A DNA stretch of 62,572 nt from a virus (IMGVR_UViG_3300033565_000049:1-62572), one strand, 5' to 3'; counted from the stretch's first letter, positions 11,878 to 62,572 are shown. Notes: generated by a model not told the origin, from the letters alone. Translations and numbers: made by a program.

Positions 11878-13875
11878 CTAAACAGCAATCTTACTGTAAT
11901 ACATCTCAATTGCTTTGCTGTTGCTTTGCACCAGGGCTTTAGCAACTACCGGTACAACTGCATTTCCGATAAACTTTTTCTGTTCGGTTTGTGTGCCTTC
12001 CAGATGATATCCATCAGGGAAACCCTGAATGCGTAGTAGTTCGCCGATAACCAGCATCCGCATTTTAATGTCAACAATTCCGTAAATAGCCATAAACATC
12101 CTGATCTTGGTCATCGTTTCGCATTCGCGTTCGAAGATGGGGATGGCGAAGATCTTCCCAGAACTGGCTGCCACTTTATACATGGGCGCCTTATCCTGTC
12201 GGGCAATGATGACCGGTGATGGCTGATCGATTCCTGAAGCATAACCAAACCAACTCGGATTCATCAGGTAGTGCCATTTGTGATTGGCGGTGATGACACT
12301 GAGCGGATTATCCAACGACTGACCAACATTGCTGAAGTTGGTATTCATGATCCAGCCTTCGACCGGCTCAGGCAGCGTGGCTGATATCAGGTTTAACTTT
12401 GGGTTTGCAGTTACGGTTCCTGCCGGTTCTTCAATGCTTGCTGGCTTCGACATGCCATATTGCTGGTCCATGAAGTTAACCGTTGTCAATCGCTGCTTTG
12501 GAACTCCGGTAATTGTTGGGTTTGGGTGGTCAATGCTGCCTAGCTGTCCACCTCCAGTGTAATAACTTTGAATGAACTGTGGCTCAACCTTTGCCAGTTT
12601 ATCCTTGGTAAGAAGGGTAGGAGCCGGTTTATCCAAACTGTGTGCATTCGATTTATACTGGTAATCGAGCAGGAAGGAAGCTTCTACCTTTGTAAACCGA
12701 TCTTTTGTGCTGACAGTTGGGCATGGACTTTCAATGGAATGGATATTCTTTCCTGTTGAATAATGAGCCGTCAGGAATGTTGAACTAACCAGGGCATGTC
12801 CGTCTTTTGTGGTGATGGATCCAGCGGGTTGATCAACCGATATATTCTTGCTTTCAGGATGTCCGGAGTAATATTTCGAAAGGAAAACCGATTTGATTAA
12901 TCCGTGTCGGTTACTGCAGGCGATTGCTCCCAGTGGGTTTAGAACCGATTTCGATTTCTCTTTCATGTCGCCACCATTGTAACGGATGGTAAACAGATCT
13001 TCGCCACCGGCAACGAACTTCACCAGTCCGGCATAAATACGCTCCAGTGTTTTCTCCGAAAGTGGTTTCTTGCGGGTAAAAATGCTCCGGCCTTCGTCTT
13101 CCAGGTTCAGTACTTCGCGCACGGGTTTCCATTTGGCTTTGGCTCCAAACAGTCCACCGATATCGGGCGACTTCGAATGGGTTGTTTCAGGCCATTTAAG
13201 CGGCAAACCTATTTTGGCAAACTGCCCGAAGTACCGTTCTCGGCTGGTGTATGCTCCGTGATCGGCAGAATTGATCAGCTGGTAATCGTATTCATACCCG
13301 TAGCTTTTCAATTCTTTGATCCAGCGCAGGTAATCGCGACCATTCAGTTTCGAGATTGGACGGCCTTTTTCGTCCAACGGTCCCCAGCTCATAAACTCAC
13401 GAACATTCTCGATGTACACGTAATCGGGTTTCAATTCTTCGATGTACATAAACAGGGCATGGGCCAGTGTGCGGCTGTCGGCATCGCGTGGTAATCCGCC
13501 TTTAGCTTTCGAGTAGTTGGTACATTCCAGACTGGCCCATAGGTTAATTACACAGCCCGGGAACTGAATCCGTAATTCTTCGACCAGTTTACGCAATTCT
13601 TCAACAACCCTGAAGTCGCGAACATCTTCAACAAAGTGCATGCACTCCGGATGGTTGCGCCAGTGACTCATCAGGGCATTGTAGTCGTGATTCACACAGG
13701 CTACAACTTTTACGTTATCCAATCCGGCCAGGTGGATCCCGGTAGTAGTTCCACCGGCACCCGCAAACAAATCGATCCAGAAGATCATACGGCCATTCGA
13801 TTCATCGTAACCCTTGTGCAGGTGCAGCATCAACGGACCGATCTTTATTTCTTCAAATATGTGTTGTGGTTTCAT
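11878..13875 (-). CDS. DNA (cytosine-5) methyltransferase with 7-8 reiterated TRD-like modules
   Basis: Motif I DLFAGAGG, motif IV variant SLECTNYS, motif VI YIENV, and C-terminal QGFPDGY...GNAVVP. Confidence 0.85.
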   Translation of the reverse strand: MKPQHIFEEIKIGPLMLHLHKGYDESNGRMIFWIDLFAGAGGTTTGIHLAGLDNVKVVACVNHDYNALMSHWRNHPECMHFVEDVRDFRVVEELRKLVEELRIQFPGCVINLWASLECTNYSKAKGGLPRDADSRTLAHALFMYIEELKPDYVYIENVREFMSWGPLDEKGRPISKLNGRDYLRWIKELKSYGYEYDYQLINSADHGAYTSRERYFGQFAKIGLPLKWPETTHSKSPDIGGLFGAKAKWKPVREVLNLEDEGRSIFTRKKPLSEKTLERIYAGLVKFVAGGEDLFTIRYNGGDMKEKSKSVLNPLGAIACSNRHGLIKSVFLSKYYSGHPESKNISVDQPAGSITTKDGHALVSSTFLTAHYSTGKNIHSIESPCPTVSTKDRFTKVEASFLLDYQYKSNAHSLDKPAPTLLTKDKLAKVEPQFIQSYYTGGGQLGSIDHPNPTITGVPKQRLTTVNFMDQQYGMSKPASIEEPAGTVTANPKLNLISATLPEPVEGWIMNTNFSNVGQSLDNPLSVITANHKWHYLMNPSWFGYASGIDQPSPVIIARQDKAPMYKVAASSGKIFAIPIFERECETMTKIRMFMAIYGIVDIKMRMLVIGELLRIQGFPDGYHLEGTQTEQKKFIGNAVVPVVAKALVQSNSKAIEMYYSKIAV

Positions 13876-18562: not shown

Positions 18563-18898
18563 TTACATTGGTAAGTCGTCGTCGTCATCATCTTCAGAAC
18601 CATGATTAACTGGTGCTTTCAAAGCCATCAGTTTCTTTTGCATCACACTAATGTCCCACGAATCAATAGGCTTTGATGTGATCATTTCAGCCATGTGTAA
18701 CATCACTTCTTCGGTTACCGGATTGATCGCATAAATTGCCGAAGGATTGAGAAGCCGTGTAAACTTGGGTTGTTGTGTGGTTTCAGGAACATCCACCCGT
18801 ACAAATGTTGCAACGCCTATGGTTTGTTCCGTTACTTTTCCGGCCATTTTGGTATGACCAAATAATTCAACTACTGCATTCAATTCAAATTTTTCCAT
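18563..18898 (-). CDS. hypothetical replication-module protein with an SSB-like acidic tail (..DDDDDDLPM)
   Basis: 111 aa, immediately downstream of dnaB. Confidence 0.6.
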   Translation of the reverse strand: MEKFELNAVVELFGHTKMAGKVTEQTIGVATFVRVDVPETTQQPKFTRLLNPSAIYAINPVTEEVMLHMAEMITSKPIDSWDISVMQKKLMALKAPVNHGSEDDDDDDLPM

Positions 18899-18912
18899 GA
18901 TTATTGTATTTA

Positions 18913-20337
18913 TTAAAATTTATCTTTTTCCTTTTCATACCGATCATCCAGCTTCGGGATCCAGTTATTCGGAGCGCTGTCGAATATCTGCGAGAAATCG
19001 TTCGATTTTTTACAGGTAATGGTGCGGATATCTCCTTCGCGGTTTTTGGCAATTACCAGGAATACTTCATTCTTCAGCGATACACCAGCTTCGTCAACTA
19101 CATCAGGGTCGTAGTACTCCGGTCGCCATGGGAAAATAACCATGTCGGCATCCTGCTCAATGGCTCCCGATTCGCGAAGATCCGACAGCATGGGGGTTTT
19201 ATCGGCACGGCTTTCAACGCCACGGTTCAACTGTACCAACAGAATGGCGGGTATGTCGAGATCCTTGGCCAGTTTTTTCAATCCGCGGCTGATTTCGGCC
19301 ACTTCGCGCTCTCGGTTTTTGTTGTTATAGCCATTTTCCTGTGGTGTTTCGACCAGCTGCAGGTAATCGATCACAATCATCGAGCATTCGCCACGGCGGG
19401 CTTTATTGCGTGCCACAGCCGAAATATACCGCAACGATGAAGCCGCTGAATCGTCGATGTAAATGGGCAGGTTTTCGAGTTGTCCAAAAGAGCGGTGATA
19501 TGCCGTCCAGTCTTCGGTAGTCATTTTACCCGATTTCAGGTGATCCGAATCAATGCCACCATTCGAGAGGATTAACCGTTGGCTCAGGCGGGTATCTTTC
19601 ATTTCGAGCGAGAAAAAGCACACCGGAAATTTTTCTTTTGCTGCCCATTTGCCAAAATGCAGGGCAAATGCTGTTTTTCCCATTCCGGGACGTGCGCCAA
19701 TAATAATCAGGTCGCTTTTTTGCCATCCGTTGGTAGCACGGTTCAGGTCGGCCAATCCGGTTGGTATTCCTGGCATTTCGCCACGTTCCGCTTTCTTCTG
19801 GCGTTCTTCCACTTCGCGGGTATTGTCTTTCATGACCTCACGAATGTGGCGCATTCCGGTTTTTCCGGCCAGTAAATCATCAATAGCCTGGGTATTCATG
19901 GCATAAGCCAGATCCACTTCGTCGAAATCGTCGTTGTAGGCAATGGTGATTAAATCATTAAAACGGCGGATCATTTCGCGCAGGGCATACTTTTCGTAAA
20001 TAATACGGGCATGATGTTCGATGTGTGCAGCGGCGGCCACCCGCGACGTGAGTTGGGTAATGTACACCGGACCGCCAACCGCTTCCAGTAAATCATCGTT
20101 CTTCAATTGCTGGGTAACGGTTAATAAATCGATGGTTTTACCCGCGGCTACCATGTTCTCAATGGTCCTGAAAATCTTCTGGTGCTCTTCCTTGTAAAAC
20201 ATTTCGCAGGTCAGCAAACCCGATATGTTCGAATACGCATCGCGCTCAAGCATACAGGCGCCCATTACCGCTTCTTCAACATCAATGGCCTGTGGCGGAA
20301 TCTTTCCGTACTGGGCATTGATCTGGTCGATGGTCAT
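18913..20337 (-). CDS. dnaB: replicative DNA helicase DnaB
   Basis: N-terminal DnaB-type PPQAIDVEEAVMGACML and Walker A GARPGMGKTAFAL. Start set at MTIDQINAQ, adjacent to the upstream stop. Confidence 0.9.
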   Translation of the reverse strand: MTIDQINAQYGKIPPQAIDVEEAVMGACMLERDAYSNISGLLTCEMFYKEEHQKIFRTIENMVAAGKTIDLLTVTQQLKNDDLLEAVGGPVYITQLTSRVAAAAHIEHHARIIYEKYALREMIRRFNDLITIAYNDDFDEVDLAYAMNTQAIDDLLAGKTGMRHIREVMKDNTREVEERQKKAERGEMPGIPTGLADLNRATNGWQKSDLIIIGARPGMGKTAFALHFGKWAAKEKFPVCFFSLEMKDTRLSQRLILSNGGIDSDHLKSGKMTTEDWTAYHRSFGQLENLPIYIDDSAASSLRYISAVARNKARRGECSMIVIDYLQLVETPQENGYNNKNREREVAEISRGLKKLAKDLDIPAILLVQLNRGVESRADKTPMLSDLRESGAIEQDADMVIFPWRPEYYDPDVVDEAGVSLKNEVFLVIAKNREGDIRTITCKKSNDFSQIFDSAPNNWIPKLDDRYEKEKDKF

Positions 20338-26801: not shown

Positions 26802-26874
26802 TAGCGAAGACAGGATTCGAACCTGCGACCTCCGGGTTATGGGCCCGGCGAGCTACCAACTGCTCTACTTCGCA
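26802..26874 (-). tRNA. tRNA-Met (anticodon CAU), initiator-like
   Basis: Hand-folded cloverleaf. U1-U72 mismatch, A11:U24, G29-31:C39-41, T-loop TTCGAAT, anticodon loop CCCAUAA (C33). No encoded CCA. Confidence 0.85.
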
Positions 26875-56833: not shown

Positions 56834-56854
56834 TAAAAAAGCCCCGAAGGGCTT
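56834..56854 (-). terminator. intrinsic terminator
   Basis: AAGCCC-cgaa-GGGCTT plus a T-run in minus sense. Confidence 0.65.
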
Positions 56855-57602
56855 AAAATAAAGTGAGCTGTTGAGTTTTTACCGGAGTCAGTAAATCGTC
56901 AAACAGATCAGTCGGTAGTTCATTCCCTTCCGGAATTGTTACGCTTTTTGGTTTTTGCGTTACGTTTTCGGGCATTTTTAGCACGATAACGCTTTCGGCT
57001 TCGGCGATGGGAACAATGTACGGTCCTTTGCCGGTTGGATGAATGGTAACCTGCCATGCTCCGTAAAACTGGTTTGAGAGTGAGTTCATCCAGGCAACTT
57101 CGCCAAACATTCCGTTCAGGCACATGTTTATGAGGCACATCATACAACAGTTGCGGTCGATATCGGCTCCGTAGAATGTTGCATTGCGGTTTACCTTCGC
57201 AGCTGCCATCAGTATGCGGCCAGATCCGCAGGCGCAATCGAGTACCCGCTGTCCAAAGCCGATCGGTTCATTGAGTCGTGCCATCAGTTCGCAAACAGGC
57301 TCCGGAGTGAAGAACTGCCCATTGTGGCCGTGTGAGATGTGTTCCATAAAGAAATCGCCAAATATGTCGCGTAATCCTTCGCCGTTATCGTCCATTTCCA
57401 TCACCAGTGCGCCAAATGCTTCGGCCATCAGGTAGGCTTCCGGTTTATCGTACCCGCGCACGATTTCGAGGTAACGGTCTTCCATCGCTCCGAGTGATAA
57501 GGCGCAAACAGTCATTTCTAAAAAGTCGCTGAATACGTTACTGATGCTGTTCCGACGCGCTAACTGCTGCATGTACTGGGCAAAGCTTTTCTGTTTTTCC
57601 AT
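56853..57602 (-). CDS. N6-adenine-MTase-like AdoMet-binding protein lacking the (D/N)PP(Y/F) catalytic motif
   Basis: GQFFTPEPVCELMA, VLDCACGSGRIL, GADID and NMCLNG are present; the expected motif IV position reads WMNSLS. Confidence 0.55.
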   Translation of the reverse strand: MEKQKSFAQYMQQLARRNSISNVFSDFLEMTVCALSLGAMEDRYLEIVRGYDKPEAYLMAEAFGALVMEMDDNGEGLRDIFGDFFMEHISHGHNGQFFTPEPVCELMARLNEPIGFGQRVLDCACGSGRILMAAAKVNRNATFYGADIDRNCCMMCLINMCLNGMFGEVAWMNSLSNQFYGAWQVTIHPTGKGPYIVPIAEAESVIVLKMPENVTQKPKSVTIPEGNELPTDLFDDLLTPVKTQQLTLF

Positions 57603-57637: not shown

Positions 57638-58123
57638 CTACATTAATCCTTCGTCGGCAAATGAGAAGTATGATTCGGAGGTAAGTATCAGGTGATCCAA
57701 TACCGGGATATCGAGAAACCGACCGGCTTCTTTAATTTTCTTCGTCAATTCTTTGTCGGCCTCGCTGGGTACCAGGTTCCCTGATGGATGGTTGTGGCTG
57801 AGTATAATGCTGCAGGCGTTTGATTTCAGCGCGGTTTGCATGATTATTTTTACATCGGCAATAGTTCCGGTAACACCTCCAACTGAAATCTGACAGTAAC
57901 CCAGCACTTTGTTATTCCGGTTAAGGCAAAGTATGTAGAAGAATTCGCGGTAGTCGAGACTTGGAAAAACATCTTTGAGGCAGGCATAGCCATCGGATGA
58001 TGTTACAACTTTTGGCAATTCGGACGCTTTGTACTTCGGTTTGTAACTGATTTCGATTTCGGCCAAAGTTGAATTGTACATTGGCACCGGGGTAAATAAA
58101 TTTGTTTGCATTGTTTGCACCAC
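57638..58123 (-). CDS. radC: RadC-like JAB/MPN domain protein
   Basis: JAMM motif SHNHPSGNLVPSEAD. Confidence 0.8.
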   Translation of the reverse strand: MVQTMQTNLFTPVPMYNSTLAEIEISYKPKYKASELPKVVTSSDGYACLKDVFPSLDYREFFYILCLNRNNKVLGYCQISVGGVTGTIADVKIIMQTALKSNACSIILSHNHPSGNLVPSEADKELTKKIKEAGRFLDIPVLDHLILTSESYFSFADEGLM

Positions 58124-59266: not shown

Positions 59267-59343
59267 ATAGCTGGTTTTAATTATTTATCTAATTATAGTG
59301 GTTTAATAAGTAGTTGCACTCAGCGAATTTAAATATTTTTTGT

Positions 59344-59886
59344 TTATGCCAGTTCTAAATCAGGTGTGCGAATTTTGGATATCGTCCGGTTTGAAATATG
59401 GGTGTATCGCATGGTTGTTTTAATGTTTTTATGACCCAACAATTTCTGAATGATGGCCAGTTCGGTTCCTGATTCGAGCAGGTGTGTTGCTGTACAATGC
59501 CGCAATAGGTGTGGATGAACGCGCTTTTTTATCTGGGCAATAGCTGCATACTTTTTTATGAATTGCTGTATTGAAGTAACTGAATATTGTTCGCGTTGCT
59601 GTCCGTTAAACAGGTAACGGCGTGGATAGCGAATATACTCGAAGGTTCGATCGTCGTTTAAAACTAACTTATAAAATAACTTGATGGCTCCCAGGCGTTG
59701 CCTTAACAATGCTTGGGAAGATGACGTGCGGAGATACTTTTTAATTTCAAGATCAGTTATTTTTAATGGATGCCTGTAAAAGTGCATAATAAACAACCGT
59801 ACTAATCCTTTGTAACAGGTAATGGTTTGTTGGCAATAGTTGCCAAGAATCATTTCGTCTTCGTACTGCTGCAAAAGTTTGCTCAT
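59344..59886 (-). CDS. internally deleted IntI/Xer-type tyrosine recombinase (probably non-catalytic)
   Basis: SAM-like N-domain (..YKGLVRLFIMHFYRHPLKITDLEIKKYL..) joined directly to HLLRHCTATHLLESG...LGHKNIKTTMRYTH. The Arg-I/Lys segment (about 100 aa) is absent. Confidence 0.6.
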   Translation of the reverse strand: MSKLLQQYEDEMILGNYCQQTITCYKGLVRLFIMHFYRHPLKITDLEIKKYLRTSSSQALLRQRLGAIKLFYKLVLNDDRTFEYIRYPRRYLFNGQQREQYSVTSIQQFIKKYAAIAQIKKRVHPHLLRHCTATHLLESGTELAIIQKLLGHKNIKTTMRYTHISNRTISKIRTPDLELA

Positions 59887-59929
59887 AAGTTATTGATTTT
59901 TAAATGTGTTTTGTATAGGCAACTGTTAG

Positions 59930-59962
59930 CGGTAATGCCAAAAGCATCTTTCAGCATTACCG
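59930..59962 (-). terminator. 9-bp hairpin after 59972..60355 (terminator-like; no T-run in minus sense)
   Basis: CGGTAATGC-15 nt-GCATTACCG. Confidence 0.35.
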
Positions 59963-59971
59963 TTGACTTTT

Positions 59972-60355
59972 TTAGAAAGGTGGATTCTCGTCATCATCTT
60001 CATAATCGTAACGACAATCAAACTGAGACTGCCAATCTTCATCCTGGTATCTTTTCAGCATTGCAACCTCGTTAATTGTCCTTTCTCCTTCCGGCTTCTG
60101 CATAATTTTTTTGCATTGGCTTTCAAAATTTTGCATTTTATACTCACCGTCCGAACGGTCCGCGGCCATTTTTTTAGCTTTTTTGTATTGGTTAACGGCT
60201 TTGTCCGCTAATCTTTGGCAGCTCTTTCTTCCTTCGTCAATTTCGTTCATTGTCAACCCAAATTCATTTTCGAGCGACATTGAAGCCTCAAAATGTGAGT
60301 AGTCATAACTCAACATTACTTTAACAGATGCGGTTTTTACAATAGTTGTACTCAT
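59972..60355 (-). CDS. hypothetical protein with an SSB-like acidic tail (..YEDDDENPPF)
   Basis: 127-aa ORF. Confidence 0.55.
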   Translation of the reverse strand: MSTTIVKTASVKVMLSYDYSHFEASMSLENEFGLTMNEIDEGRKSCQRLADKAVNQYKKAKKMAADRSDGEYKMQNFESQCKKIMQKPEGERTINEVAMLKRYQDEDWQSQFDCRYDYEDDDENPPF

Positions 60356-60412
60356 TGATTTAAGTCGGTTGCCTGTACTCCGAAAGGTTTTTAGTATTTA
60401 TGTGATTTTGAA

Positions 60413-60553
60413 GGCACTAACCAATAACTTGCACTACCCGTCAATTGCCGAAACTGGTGGTTTGCGAGCGTTTCAGCCCGCTTGTAATTCATTTCGGCTT
60501 GACATGAAAACTCTACGCATCGGCAACTGCGTGTAGCCTTTAATGTTGTAGGC
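60413..60553 (-). repeat. attC-like structured element c1
   Basis: Minus sense: GCCTacAAC..GGCTACACGCAGTTGCCG...AAACCAC...CGGCAATTGACGGGTAG..GTTAGtGCC. Starts 4 nt after the stop of 60558..60797. Confidence 0.6.
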
Positions 60554-60557
60554 TATA

Positions 60558-60797
60558 TTAAAACTGCGCTACTTTGAGAGTTTTGTTTTCGATAAATACC
60601 TTTTCGAGTTCTGGATGATCGACAAGGTATTTATTGATTTCATCAGCTTCGTTCTGAGCTTCGAGTTCTGTTTTAAAATTGACTAAATGTTTGTCTTTTG
60701 CGACAAAAATTGTACGACGATTATTGACCATGATTTTAACACCAAAAAGCAATTCTGGTGAATTAAAATCTAATACTTTCATTGTTTTTGCTTTCAT
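60558..60797 (-). CDS. hypothetical protein (cassette-like ORF)
   Basis: 79-aa ORF flanked by elements c2 and c1. Confidence 0.55.
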   Translation of the reverse strand: MKAKTMKVLDFNSPELLFGVKIMVNNRRTIFVAKDKHLVNFKTELEAQNEADEINKYLVDHPELEKVFIENKTLKVAQF

Positions 60798-60845
60798 AAT
60801 AATTTGATTTATTAATAGTTAATTAATGATTGATTCTAAAATACA

Positions 60846-60977
60846 GCCTACAACTTCAGCTACCCGTCAAGTGCGGCAGCGGTGGTTTTCGGTGTGCATC
60901 TTTCCGCTCAAACTGCTTTTCGGCTTGACAGGAAATCGCCCGCAGTCCGCCCCTGCGTGTAGCTTCCTACGTTAGGC
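60846..60977 (-). repeat. attC-like structured element c2
   Basis: Minus sense: GCCTAAC..AGCTACACGCAGGGGCGG...AAACCAC...CCGCACTTGACGGGTAGCT..GTTgtAGGC. Starts 7 nt after the stop of 60984..61370. Confidence 0.6.
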
Positions 60978-60983
60978 TTCATG

Positions 60984-61370
60984 CTAAAGAGACGGCACAA
61001 CTTTGAACATTCCTTTTTCGTTCTGAGTTGTTAAAACCTCAAAATAAGCGGCTTTCTCTTTTTCTATTTTAAAGAAGTCAATAAAATAGTTCATGAGTTC
61101 TTTACTTGTAAATCGGTAATATTCTCGCCCTGCATTGCCTAAATAGTAGCTATCCTCTTCGGGTTCTTCCTTGTATATGTATGCACAATTATCTTTGCGA
61201 CTAAATGCAAACATTACGGCATCTCTTTGAGTAGCATTAAGTAGTTCCGCTACTTTTTTAAATACTACAAATGTACCTCGTGGCATTTCGATTTTAATGT
61301 GTGGCTTTTCGTGGCTCTTCCATTGTCCTGTCGTAGCCCTTTGCCTTCTAAATATTAATAAATCTTCCAT
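60984..61370 (-). CDS. hypothetical protein (cassette-like ORF)
   Basis: Start set at MEDLLIFRRQ (61370). The 5' extension of the track ORF runs into element c2b. Confidence 0.5.
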   Translation of the reverse strand: MEDLLIFRRQRATTGQWKSHEKPHIKIEMPRGTFVVFKKVAELLNATQRDAVMFAFSRKDNCAYIYKEEPEEDSYYLGNAGREYYRFTSKELMNYFIDFFKIEKEKAAYFEVLTTQNEKGMFKVVPSL

Positions 61371-61417
61371 TTTATGATATGTTTTTAAATTGTTTAATGA
61401 GATAAAAAAGCACGAAA

Positions 61418-61549
61418 GCCTAACACAACCTATAACCAATAAAGGTTTTAGTGGGTAATCCAACGTTGTATCTCGCATCCAGTTTAGTGTATTTTGACAG
61501 TTTTTCGCCCCCGTAATCCTTTACTGGTTATAGCTTCAACGTTATGGGT
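61418..61549 (-). repeat. attC-like structured element c2b (divergent sequence, similar size and fold)
   Basis: Imperfect long hairpin (CTATAACC/GGTTATAG, AGTAAAGG/CCTTTATT). The 3' end GGTTGTGTTAGGC carries a GTTAGGC core. Confidence 0.4.
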
Positions 61550-61580
61550 AAGCATATTGCAGCCTACCCATTTGATAAGT

Positions 61581-61802
61581 TTACGCTGGTTCGAGATTGT
61601 CATCAAAGTATTTCTTTGAAACATACCATAAATCAGCATGGTTTTTTGGATTGCGCGCAACATACCCCAGCTTAAATTCTGAGTCTGGTAAACGTTTATC
61701 GGGTTCCGACACGCTAACAACGCCTTGACCTTGATTTTCAAACTCTAAAAGTGTAACCATTTCAGAAAAACCTTTTCTTTTGTACTGTTTAAATTCTAAC
61801 AT
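61581..61802 (-). CDS. hypothetical protein (cassette-like ORF)
   Basis: Start set at MLEFKQYKRKG (61802); 73 aa. Confidence 0.5.
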   Translation of the reverse strand: MLEFKQYKRKGFSEMVTLLEFENQGQGVVSVSEPDKRLPDSEFKLGYVARNPKNHADLWYVSKKYFDDNLEPA

Positions 61803-61849
61803 AATTGAAAAATTTAAGTGATTAATAACTATATAATTGACAACTAAAT

Positions 61850-61992
61850 GCCTAACCCATAACACCAGCTACCCGTCAAATGCGGCAGCAGTGGTTTCAA
61901 TCGGCATCTTTCCGCTCGATGTCCTTGTCCTACCGGACAGGACATCGCCCGAAATCCGCCTCTGCGTGTAGCTTCCGTGCGTTCGAATAGGT
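61850..61992 (-). repeat. attC-like structured element c3
   Basis: Minus sense: ACCTAttcgAAC..AGCTACACGCAGAGGCGG...AAACCAC...CCGCATTTGACGGGTAGCT..GTTAGGC. Confidence 0.6.
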
Positions 61993-62031
61993 ATAGTGTC
62001 GCGTTAAATCGTTGAATCAAATCTACAAACT

Positions 62032-62073
62032 ACATTTGAAACATTCGCACATATGTGCGAATGTTTCAAATGT
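62032..62073. repeat. perfect 42-bp palindrome (21-bp arms), probable strong bidirectional terminator
   Basis: ACATTTGAAACATTCGCACAT|ATGTGCGAATGTTTCAAATGT, 9 nt after the stop of 62083..62253. Confidence 0.85.
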
Positions 62074-62082
62074 TTTTCAGCA

Positions 62083-62253
62083 TCAACTGGCGATACTGCT
62101 AACAAATTGGTTGTACTCGAAGCTGATCAGCTCCTGATCGAGAAGTTCGGAAGCACCTTCGAAATAAATTGAATCGAGGTACTGGGTGAATTCGTCCCAG
62201 AGGTTCTGGCGGGTTTCGGATTCTGAAGAATGGGTCAATCGTATTGTTTTCAT
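62083..62253 (-). CDS. 56-aa hypothetical protein (below the track cutoff)
   Basis: Hand-translated as MKTIRLTHSSESETRQNLWDEFTQYLDSIYFEGASELLDQELISFEYNQFVSSIAS. Confidence 0.45.
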   Translation of the reverse strand: MKTIRLTHSSESETRQNLWDEFTQYLDSIYFEGASELLDQELISFEYNQFVSSIAS

Positions 62254-62282
62254 TTGTTCGATTTTTAAAATTGAGGTTTTAA

Positions 62283-62308
62283 AAAGTCCCCCGATTTCTC
62301 AGGGGGCA
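62283..62308 (-). terminator. intrinsic terminator after the wrap-around gene
   Basis: CCCCC-gatttctca-GGGGG, followed by a T-run in minus sense. Confidence 0.6.
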
Positions 62309-62315
62309 ATCTGTT

Positions 62316-62572
62316 TTAGTAGGGAAGATCATCTTCAACAGGTTCTTTCTTCGATTTCTTTTTGGCTGATTTTTTTTGCTGTTCAGGCTCCTTGTCTTTG
62401 GCTGGTTCGCTTTGTTCTTTGGTCTGGTAGTAACAAGTGTGGGTACGGTTGAATTTGTCGGGGCTTTTCATTTTAGCCACTTCAAACGTGATGTAGGTGA
62501 TTCCGTTTTTTACGAATGTTGTTTTCAGGGCGTCTTCCATTGGGATTACTACTTTCACGATGTCGAGATCGT
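62316..62572 (-). CDS. 3' part of the wrap-around CDS (see 1..174); ends ..KKEPVEDDLPY
   Basis: The ORF is open to the window end, and the sequence 62446..62572 equals 1..127. Confidence 0.6.
   Translation of the reverse strand, partial: DLDIVKVVIPMEDALKTTFVKNGITYITFEVAKMKSPDKFNRTHTCYYQTKEQSEPAKDKEPEQQKKSAKKKSKKEPVEDDLPY
62446..62572. repeat. 127-bp terminal direct repeat (copy of 1..127)
   Basis: Identical to the window start. Confidence 0.95.

Follow-up and report, generated by a model that had tools for sequence, protein, structure and literature searches.

Folded repeats in a tailed phage and their kin in integron-like chromosomal arrays of Prolixibacteraceae

INTRODUCTION

Integrons are the textbook device that captures genes as cassettes, and they are defined by the integrase IntI with its special insert. 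The question raised by the virus sequence IMGVR_UViG_3300033565_000049 is whether a block of small genes near one of its ends is an array of that kind inside a phage. The window, meaning the whole stretch of 62,572 nucleotides that was analyzed, is a tailed phage by its gene content (a tape measure protein, a head protease, DnaB, and a primase are encoded), with nearly all genes on the minus strand. Between 59.3 and 62.3 kb its small minus-strand open reading frames (ORFs) are parted by 4 same-strand elements of about 140 nt each, which we call c3, c2b, c2, and c1, and the block ends at a damaged tyrosine recombinase gene. An initial annotation made from the sequence alone took this to be an integron-like array, or a cluster of attC sites lacking an integron integrase (CALIN), lying inside a phage, and the gene content bears out the phage part of that claim. 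Our conclusion is that the 4 elements are probably structure-specific recombination sites of the attC type, from an integron-like system native to Prolixibacteraceae (Bacteroidota).

RESULTS AND DISCUSSION

Four elements of one family

All 4 elements are present on the minus strand where they had been annotated. Their limits, their scores with a covariance model named R1, and the positions of their AAC and GTT cores are as follows.

61845..61992, minus strand: c3, an attC-like folded repeat; 124.5 bits; AAC at 61981-61983, GTT at 61861-61863.
61406..61552, minus strand: c2b, a divergent family member; 47.7 bits, E ~4e-9; AAC at 61541-61543, GTT at 61422-61424.
60836..60982, minus strand: c2; 148 bits; AAC at 60971-60973, GTT at 60852-60854.
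60410..60556, minus strand: c1; 129.5 bits; AAC at 60545-60547, GTT at 60426-60428.

R1 was built from c1, c2, c3, and 7 viral homologs, so that the scores of those 3 hold by construction. It recovers c2b though that copy was absent from model building, in agreement with the proposal that c2b is kin by structure. The sequence blocks said to be shared by c1, c2, and c3 are likewise found: GCTACACGCAG and TTGACGGGTAG each have exactly 3 copies in the 62.5-kb window, confined to these elements at a constant spacing of 82 nt, and looser matches with one or 2 mismatches are at chance level. The 4 co-oriented sites together span 1.6 kb.

The relatives of these elements are found in 2 places, viral contigs and bacterial chromosomes. 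A pattern scan of viral contigs returned 30 loci, 22 of them chance matches and 8 true homologs, and with R1 the viral homologs resolve into same-strand arrays of 2 to 4 elements, 0.2-1 kb apart. C2 is 95-96% identical to chromosomal elements of Prolixibacteraceae (L120, L064, and L041), which suggests recent exchange. C3 is 88% identical to chromosomal copies, and its central hairpin, first described as private, belongs to a subtype that occurs in those copies too. C1 has 86-88% identity with loci L012 and L001, 77% with L021, and only 72-75% with chromosomal copies; its subtype is seen mainly in viral contigs.

Fold, cores, and covariation

All copies form one long imperfect hairpin. The outer helix carries the AAC/GTT pairs; an asymmetric internal loop follows, in which GUAGGA faces GAA; and the inner helix AGCUAC/GUAGCU continues into CG/CG and then CAGnnnnnn/nnnnnnUUG. 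The AGCUAC/GUAGCU helix, the GUAGGA/GAA spacer, a bulged A together with an A.G mismatch, and the center of about 65 nt may be analogs of attC traits (the second helix, its unpaired spacer, extrahelical bases, and a variable terminal structure). Copies of the c2b type do not have the bulge, the c2b stem being continuous (AUAACCAG/UUGGUUAU). The center falls into several subtypes, and RNAalifold finds no consensus helices in this domain, yet the short motifs GGAUUnCG, CUGUCAA, GAGCGGAAAG, and AAACCAC are conserved there. A candidate pseudoknot pairing CCUGUCAA with UUGACGGG was dropped, as divergent copies keep UGUCAA and have UUGGUUAU for the 3' strand.

In an alignment of 97 copies from 29 sources, the stem is paired in 92.3% of cells, compared with 79.4% in shuffles and 28-52% with slid partners, and changes on both sides occur at 18 of 22 pairs. 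Since the alignment was fitted to the model these counts lean toward structure, with a margin that is still large. The compensatory changes first noticed within the window (T-A, G-C, and A-T at one pair, C-G and G-C at another) are real and generalize to the 97 copies.

At the ends of the element only AAC...GTT is invariant, its pairs being kept in 91-93 of the 97 copies and present in 4 of 4 window elements. The GCCT and AGGC extensions, pairs 7-9, are paired in 50-77% across the family. Of the termini originally described as GCCT...AAC and GTT...AGGC, then, the cores stand and the extensions vary; in the same way the reported fit to RYYYAAC/GTTRRRY holds for AAC/GTT, with the flanking RYYY/RRRY positions only loosely kept.

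Folded as single-stranded DNA, the minus or phage-sense strand is the better hairpin in 4 of 4 window elements: -28.3 versus -22.9 kcal/mol for the plus strand in c3 (minus-strand z -3.4), -14.7 versus -10.3 in c2b, -24.2 versus -17.5 in c2, and -23.1 versus -19.4 in c1. This is the bottom strand in chromosomal terms, it also shows an excess of G.U over A.C pairs, and a folded single strand is what we suppose to be the recombination substrate.

Long co-oriented arrays in Prolixibacteraceae chromosomes

The bacterial scan took one genome per species, in blocks of up to 8 kb each. Element-bearing blocks number at least 120, nearly all from Prolixibacteraceae and other Bacteroidales (Draconibacterium, Mariniphaga, Maribellus, and Sunxiuqinia). 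A hidden Markov model counts at least 421 elements in the matches listed, nearly always on one strand per block and with up to 11 copies per 8 kb, and among those matches the copies are co-oriented and confined to few loci per genome. Where blocks are contiguous they join into arrays of at least 70-90 kb, at 424-496 kb of OW818695.1 and at 3.904-3.992 Mb of CAXXQR010000001.1.

The order in these arrays is recombinase, ORF, element, ORF, element, and so on. The ORFs, which are co-directional with the recombinase gene, terminate right at the edge of the element or overlap it with their stop codons, the conserved GCTTTA of the element being their TAA stop read on the other strand. The isolate Aquipluma nitroreducens, with a closed genome (AP018694.1), has 9 elements in the 10 kb after the recombinase and none in the 10 kb before it, where housekeeping genes precede the recombinase; one of the cassettes in this genome consists of a Gp49-type toxin with a helix-turn-helix antitoxin (18813-19332 of block L159).

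The recombinase at array ends is a protein of 577-582 amino acids (aa), seen at 7 loci, of which 5 are complete (L116, L037, L058, L110, and L140) and 2 are cut by the block edge (L130 and L059). With NCBIfam models, its C-terminal 280 residues score 236.5 bits against the integron integrase model TIGR02249 (cut-off 265), 212.7 against XerA, and 166-173 against XerC/D. The TIGR02249 match comes in 2 stretches that skip model positions ~177-233, and the best Protein Data Bank (PDB) relative is IntI4. Preceding this domain is an N-terminal extension of about 300 aa with a DUF5710 match. Databases name the family 'phage integrase', 'XerD', or 'tyrosine-type recombinase', never integron integrase. 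Downstream of the recombinase stop codon, 4 loci share an attI-like block of about 40 nt, which carries ...TACTAGTTAT and ends in TACTAGTT (ACTAGTT), after which the sequences diverge.

A second tyrosine recombinase, of 301 aa, lies directly after an element on the element-sense strand in L128 (831-1736 and 3971-6048) and also in L114, L035, L036, and L079, with at least 9 matches in one genome. It was considered as the array integrase and rejected, since the one complete copy in L128 has downstream of it a 391-aa ORF that we judged by eye to resemble an IS91-family transposase, with Zn-binding and HUH traits. The unit looks like an insertion sequence that targets array sites.

Where cassettes exchange, and which way their genes point

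One cassette body of 237 nt has 4 copies in a single genome with different neighbors, and the homology among these copies consists of one flanking element, the body, and a few bases before the next AAC. The same asymmetry holds for the 151-218 pairs with homologous bodies: the median element identity is 93% on one side and 31% on the other. Going outward, homology first breaks at the base directly 5' of AAC on one side, and on the other 4-6 nt past the first A of the following AAC. These positions place the exchange point within AAC(G). The coding strand reads G|TT there, and G|TT is where attC sites exchange. In the co-oriented chromosomal arrays it is the 3' end of the cassette ORF that adjoins the element, with the boundary at G|TT. 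Together with the 70-90 kb arrays, these AAC/GTT junctions support the original reading of the phage block as an integron-like or CALIN-type array beside a gutted recombinase.

The orientation of the ORFs is opposite in the 2 settings. Over 283 chromosomal gaps, counting an ORF when it fills more than 60% of the gap, the main ORF is on the strand opposite the element in 92 and on the same strand in 7; over 16 viral gaps it is on the element strand in 13, on the opposite strand in one, and unclear in 2. A family whose flanking ORFs point one way in chromosomes and the other way in phages is likely to function at the level of DNA, and this is the main argument against a shared function at the level of RNA. 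Since transcription in the phage runs toward the recombinase, with nearly all its genes on one strand, only cassettes with an inverted ORF would be usable there, and the phage cassettes carry their ORF on the strand that makes the better hairpin. The inverted ORFs amount to a prediction that transcription direction filters cassette content. One viral gap, L010 2194-2868, breaks the rule: it is filled by a 226-aa ORF that runs against the elements, the orientation of chromosomal cassettes. Either L010 is a piece of chromosome that was classed as viral, or it may be a phage that acquired a host cassette.

The phage recombinase, its junction, and the cassettes

At the end of the phage block are 2 features.

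59344..59886, minus strand: recombinase remnant by Pfam, BLASTP against L012, and NCBIfam, with the His-x-x-Arg and Tyr region kept.
59887..59928, minus strand: attI-like junction, with a TAAC core at 59925-59928 and then the conserved CCTATACAAAACAC...AATCAAnAACTT leader of the recombinase gene.

The ORF at 59344-59886 has a full match to Phage_int_SAM_4, and to Phage_integrase at profile positions 92-169 of 172 only. By BLASTP, residues 1-89 of the remnant match the same residues of an intact 271-aa homolog (L012:2475-3287) and its residues 90-180 match residues 181-271 there, so that the window has suffered an in-frame deletion of 91 residues, 90-180 of the intact protein. The lost stretch contains GMREGE and KGKKDR, which on our reading of the motifs would carry the catalytic Arg and Lys. 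A recombinase without the middle of its catalytic domain is what had been described, and both the profile gap and the deletion confirm it. The phage recombinase scores 212.9 bits against the NCBIfam XerA/'integron integrase' model (cut-off 220) and 165 bits against TIGR02249 (cut-off 265), again in 2 stretches that skip model positions ~177-233. Because of the deletion, the window array would be a frozen CALIN-like remnant unless a host recombinase acts in trans.

Counting the window, a recombinase of about 271 aa is found downstream of elements and on the same strand at 5 phage loci, the others being L012/L031, L032, L033, and L157, and the attI-like motif precedes the recombinase gene in each of those others as well. 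In the alignment of the 5, conservation begins exactly at TAAC, about 40 nt before the ATG, and the sequence upstream is unrelated; tblastx homology starts at -41 to -47 from the recombinase ATG in all pairs. Upstream of TAAC only the elements match, even in pairs that are syntenic for several kb downstream. Such a start of conservation is what an anchor site leaves when the cassettes to one side of it vary. The phage attI-like site carries TAACGnnTnCCTATACAAAAC.

Two observations touch on this junction. The attI-like motif TAACnnnTnCnTATACAAAAC occurs once inside an ORF of the viral contig L018 (6204-6224, minus strand), upstream of an element array and with no recombinase gene after it. In the window, a short hairpin GGTAATGC..GCATTACC surrounds GAAAGATGC at 59930-59970, in the interval that separates the 127-aa ORF from the TAAC junction. 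As GAAAGATGC recurs in the center of c2 and c3, this hairpin may be what is left of a fifth element after most of it was deleted.

The nearest chromosomal relative of the phage recombinase that was fetched is a long recombinase in L118, at 46% identity, which adjoins an element, the two converging as they do where arrays end. In one further viral locus, L155, the recombinase is at the contig end and any upstream array lies outside the view.

The mapped crossover also tells which element goes with which ORF. In the initial annotation each phage ORF formed a unit with the element after it. The crossover instead assigns an element to the ORF downstream of it, so that the phage unit is apparently element, AT-rich spacer, and ORF. 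If each cassette is taken to run from the C of one AAC through the AA of the following one, the cassettes and their ORFs would be as follows.

61542-61981, minus strand: inferred cassette A, c3 with the 73-aa ORF, 440 nt.
61581..61802, minus strand: 73-aa ORF from the ORF list, no Pfam or PHROG match; fills 75% of its gap on the element-sense strand.
60972-61541, minus strand: inferred cassette B, c2b with the 128-aa ORF, 570 nt.
60984..61370, minus strand: 128-aa ORF from the ORF list, no Pfam or PHROG match; fills 91% of its gap.
60546-60971, minus strand: inferred cassette C, c2 with the 79-aa ORF, 426 nt.
60558..60797, minus strand: 79-aa ORF from the ORF list, no Pfam or PHROG match; fills 85% of its gap.
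59926-60545, minus strand: inferred cassette D, c1 with the 127-aa ORF, 620 nt; ends at the TAAC before the recombinase.
59972..60355, minus strand: 127-aa ORF from the ORF list, no Pfam or PHROG match.

The small ORFs of the window have no homolog in any of the fetched loci, and the cassette block has no blastn match among GenBank/INPHARED phages. The stop codon upstream of an element comes 8-14 nt ahead of its AAC, and 20-60 nt separate the element from the next ATG. At the DNA level the phages of the viral contigs resemble the window only in the elements, in the spacer that leads to the next ATG, and in the recombinase.

How the system may work, and what speaks against it

The explanation that we prefer would run as follows. 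On chromosomes, the recombinase of about 578 aa beside its attI-like site is the presumed partner of arrays of up to ~100 cassettes, each cassette being an ORF followed by an imperfect hairpin of 130-145 nt, with strand exchange inside the AAC/GTT core. The phage would have a small version of this platform, the 271-aa recombinase gene standing behind a TAAC attI-like junction with cassettes stacked upstream, and given a single reading strand its cassette ORFs would come to lie on the better-hairpin, or bottom, strand. That the array-end recombinase catalyzes the exchange, site-specifically at AAC and on the folded strand, we infer from comparative anatomy, and the phage sites are presumably still recombinogenic.

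Several results weigh against this explanation. Neither recombinase has the insert that is specific to IntI: the chromosomal protein has 30 residues where IntI4 has 72, about 42 fewer, and the phage protein is also without it. These are not canonical IntI, and of the original designation as IntI/Xer type the membership of the Xer/IntI clade and the IntI-likeness stand, with the family reading to be corrected. The window recombinase is dead. Related 270-aa recombinases, 60-63% identical, occur in 2 prophage-like regions of Draconibacterium chromosomes, neither with an element within 10 kb, and the related phage contig L154 has no element in the fetched region. No cassette ORF is common to any of the viral loci compared, so that mobility within phages is argued from the recombinase-proximal junction only. 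The conserved motifs in the element center exceed what a free 'variable terminal structure' needs. Finally, the element-sense strand has 153 G.U pairs compared with 44 A.C pairs, a strand bias that shrinks to 61 versus 44 without one invariant G.U pair.

Alternative explanations

An attP-type role for the elements, with the phage integrating whole into a host array and the small ORFs incidental, is a special case of the explanation that we prefer. The recombinase gene adjoins elements in all 5 phage loci, the host chromosome offers hundreds of target sites, c2 is nearly identical to host copies, and related recombinases do occur in the prophage-like regions of Draconibacterium. Those 2 regions are the ones that have no element nearby, and in the chromosomal blocks, among the matches listed, a methylase fragment is the sole relative of the window and no related prophage turned up. 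Moreover one site suffices for integration, and the phages carry 2 to 4 or more with the gaps filled by ORFs. We consider a purely attP-type role unlikely.

The elements might instead be cis-acting RNA in a polycistronic early transcript, serving in processing or stabilization or as a terminator or leader, comparable to the RNase III sites between T7 early genes. In favor of this, the elements occupy intergenic spacers on the coding strand, closely fitted between one stop codon and the next ATG; as RNA their folds are stable (z-scores from -2.1 to -3.4); G.U pairs are tolerated on the coding strand; and a U-rich GCUUUAU follows them. The elements are not a family known to Rfam 15, which has no attC family and no match on them, whether the whole window is scanned at the gathering threshold or 59300-62572 at E up to 10 with permissive filters; these scans yielded only a tRNA elsewhere and, in the permissive one, spurious miRNA matches on a palindrome at 62033-62072. 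More than 400 chromosomal copies are antisense to their flanking ORFs, where the transcript would be the poorly folding strand, and there GCTTTA is accounted for as a stop codon of the other strand. Arrays that start at a recombinase and cassettes that move with junctions inside AAC are also not in the nature of a transcript signal. RNA leaders or attenuators, the alternative that the initial annotation had kept beside its own reading, are disfavored by the antisense and sense placements and the Rfam result, and we regard an RNA function as the family's reason for being as quite improbable, though the elements may have a secondary RNA effect in the phage.

A slightly poorer prospect is that the elements are intergenic linkers through which phage genes are shuffled by ordinary homologous recombination, with no dedicated recombinase, similar to the promoter-early stem-loop (PeSL) modules that have been proposed in T4-type phages. 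Between phages the DNA similarity does consist of elements and the spacer to the next ATG with the ORFs all different, and elements of the c1 subtype precede unrelated ORFs in 4 phages. Exchange points in chromosomes, however, lie within about 4 nt at AAC and are not spread over the 140 nt of homology; the co-orientation, the covarying hairpin, and the array-end recombinase would be superfluous for homologous recombination; and the phage recombinase module begins exactly at the TAAC core. On these grounds linkers seem a very improbable account.

Selfish repeats of the miniature inverted-repeat transposable element (MITE) or repetitive extragenic palindrome (REP) type, spreading between genes, would explain the inverted AAC/GTT termini, the constant size, and the high copy number, and can hardly be credited, since the copies are clustered in co-oriented arrays at few loci per genome, travel with the adjacent ORF, and change their stems by covariation with the size kept; no target-site duplications were noticed in the junctions read, with no systematic search made.

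What the phage arm would mean

The attC-type explanation can be extended to a larger claim, which we put forward tentatively as having a somewhat less than even chance: that the window belongs to the phage arm of an integron-type system in which an Xer/IntI-clade recombinase without the insert runs arrays of ~100 units through folded sites of 130-145 nt, and in which phages keep a mini-platform (the TAAC site with a minimal 271-aa recombinase) and a separate pool of inverted-ORF cassettes, with sites near-identical to those of the host. If so, the IntI insert would not be a universal need for recombination of folded sites, and the structural need for it could be probed on a recombinase that does not have it. 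Phages would be active partners in cassette traffic, and compatible sites such as c2 would be a route for cassettes or whole phages into and out of host arrays. Searches based on the integrase would also have missed an entire family of large cassette arrays. The literature searched, a limited library, has no description of these arrays or of integrons in Prolixibacteraceae/Marinilabiliales, and the IntegronFinder 2.0 supplements are silent on these taxa.

Other features of the window

Past the cassette block are encoded a RadC-like JAB protein (57638-58123) and an N6-adenine methyltransferase-like protein (56853-57602), and a second large DNA methyltransferase is at 11878-13875. In our view RadC-like and methyltransferase genes such as these are typical of anti-restriction and early functions; early-type genes abound in the region, which is presumably early. 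The palindrome that attracts the spurious miRNA matches is perfect over 40 bp (CATTTGAAACATTCGCACAT|ATGTGCGAATGTTTCAAATG at 62033-62072) and lies between the ORF at 62083-62253 and c3; it could be an operator, a terminator, or a further recombination site. Upstream of the cassette block and directly after the ORF at 62316-62558, a terminator-like hairpin on the minus strand (62281-62307) has GCCCCC...GGGGGAC followed by TTTTT. A stretch of 38 nt at 61541-61578 is identical to 3256-3293 of L018, the sequences being otherwise unrelated, and holds a small hairpin GGGTAGGC..GCTTACCC; it adjoins the 5' core of c2b in the window and is about 116 nt upstream of an element in L018. The sole Rfam match of the window at the gathering threshold is a tRNA gene at 26802-26874 on the minus strand (64.4 bits).

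Comparison with known systems

The PeSL modules of T4-type phages are short promoter and hairpin motifs thought to act through homologous recombination. Like them, the window has conserved stem-loops flanking small variable ORFs in a plastic phage region; unlike them, its elements are 140 nt long, are shared with bacterial arrays, and are tied to a tyrosine recombinase.

The closer likeness is to integron attC sites and to sedentary chromosomal integrons, such as those of the Vibrio cholerae repeats. Shared features are co-oriented arrays of small, mostly unknown ORFs with imperfect-hairpin sites; invariant AAC/GTT inverted cores; sites that are homogeneous within a lineage; chromosomal cassettes that each keep the site 3' of their ORF and join at G|TT; cassettes that encode toxin-antitoxin pairs; and, at one end, a recombinase with an attI-like site. 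The unpaired spacer that parts the two helices, the stem bulge or mismatch, and the variable center would be further points of likeness. Candidate parts of a complete integron can be pointed to in both settings, as a recombinase, a block ending in GTT, and an array in chromosomes, and as a TAAC junction, a recombinase gene, and cassettes in the phage; the recombinase is no canonical IntI, and in the window it carries the deletion. The differences are that the chromosomal recombinase here has no IntI insert, which has been reported essential for integron function, and has instead its long N-terminal extension; that it is co-directional with the cassettes; that RYYY/RRRY is unconserved; that the spacer is asymmetric at 6-7 nt versus 3-4 nt; that the center of ~65 nt has conserved motifs; and that the sites are at the top of the attC size range. 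Integrons have been reported as nearly absent from Bacteroidota, where IntegronFinder surveys list only In0 elements and one complete integron in Salinibacter (PMC9024848).

Among recombinases, the nearest described group is that of the 'integron-like' simple tyrosine recombinases and XerA (Smyshlyaev et al. 2021, PMC8138268; NF040815 and TIGR02249). The SAM-like core-binding and catalytic domains are alike, and the integron integrase and XerA models are the best curated matches of the recombinases here. The scores are under the curated cut-offs (236.5 versus 265 and 212.9 versus 220), and the phage protein has only 271 aa.

CALINs have been found in 17 phages, and in virulent phages they have been shown to recombine with IntI1 (Qi et al. 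2023, PMC9892861). The window resembles these in having at least 2 co-oriented attC-like sites, small ORFs, no working integrase, and methyltransferase-type genes nearby. It differs in that its sites are from a non-canonical family, that the cognate recombinase gene, with its deletion, and an attI-like junction are present, that its ORFs are on the opposite strand relative to chromosomal cassettes, and that none of the GenBank/INPHARED phages matches it. By analogy, then, the chromosomal system would work like an integron, and the block in the window would be like a CALIN in a phage.

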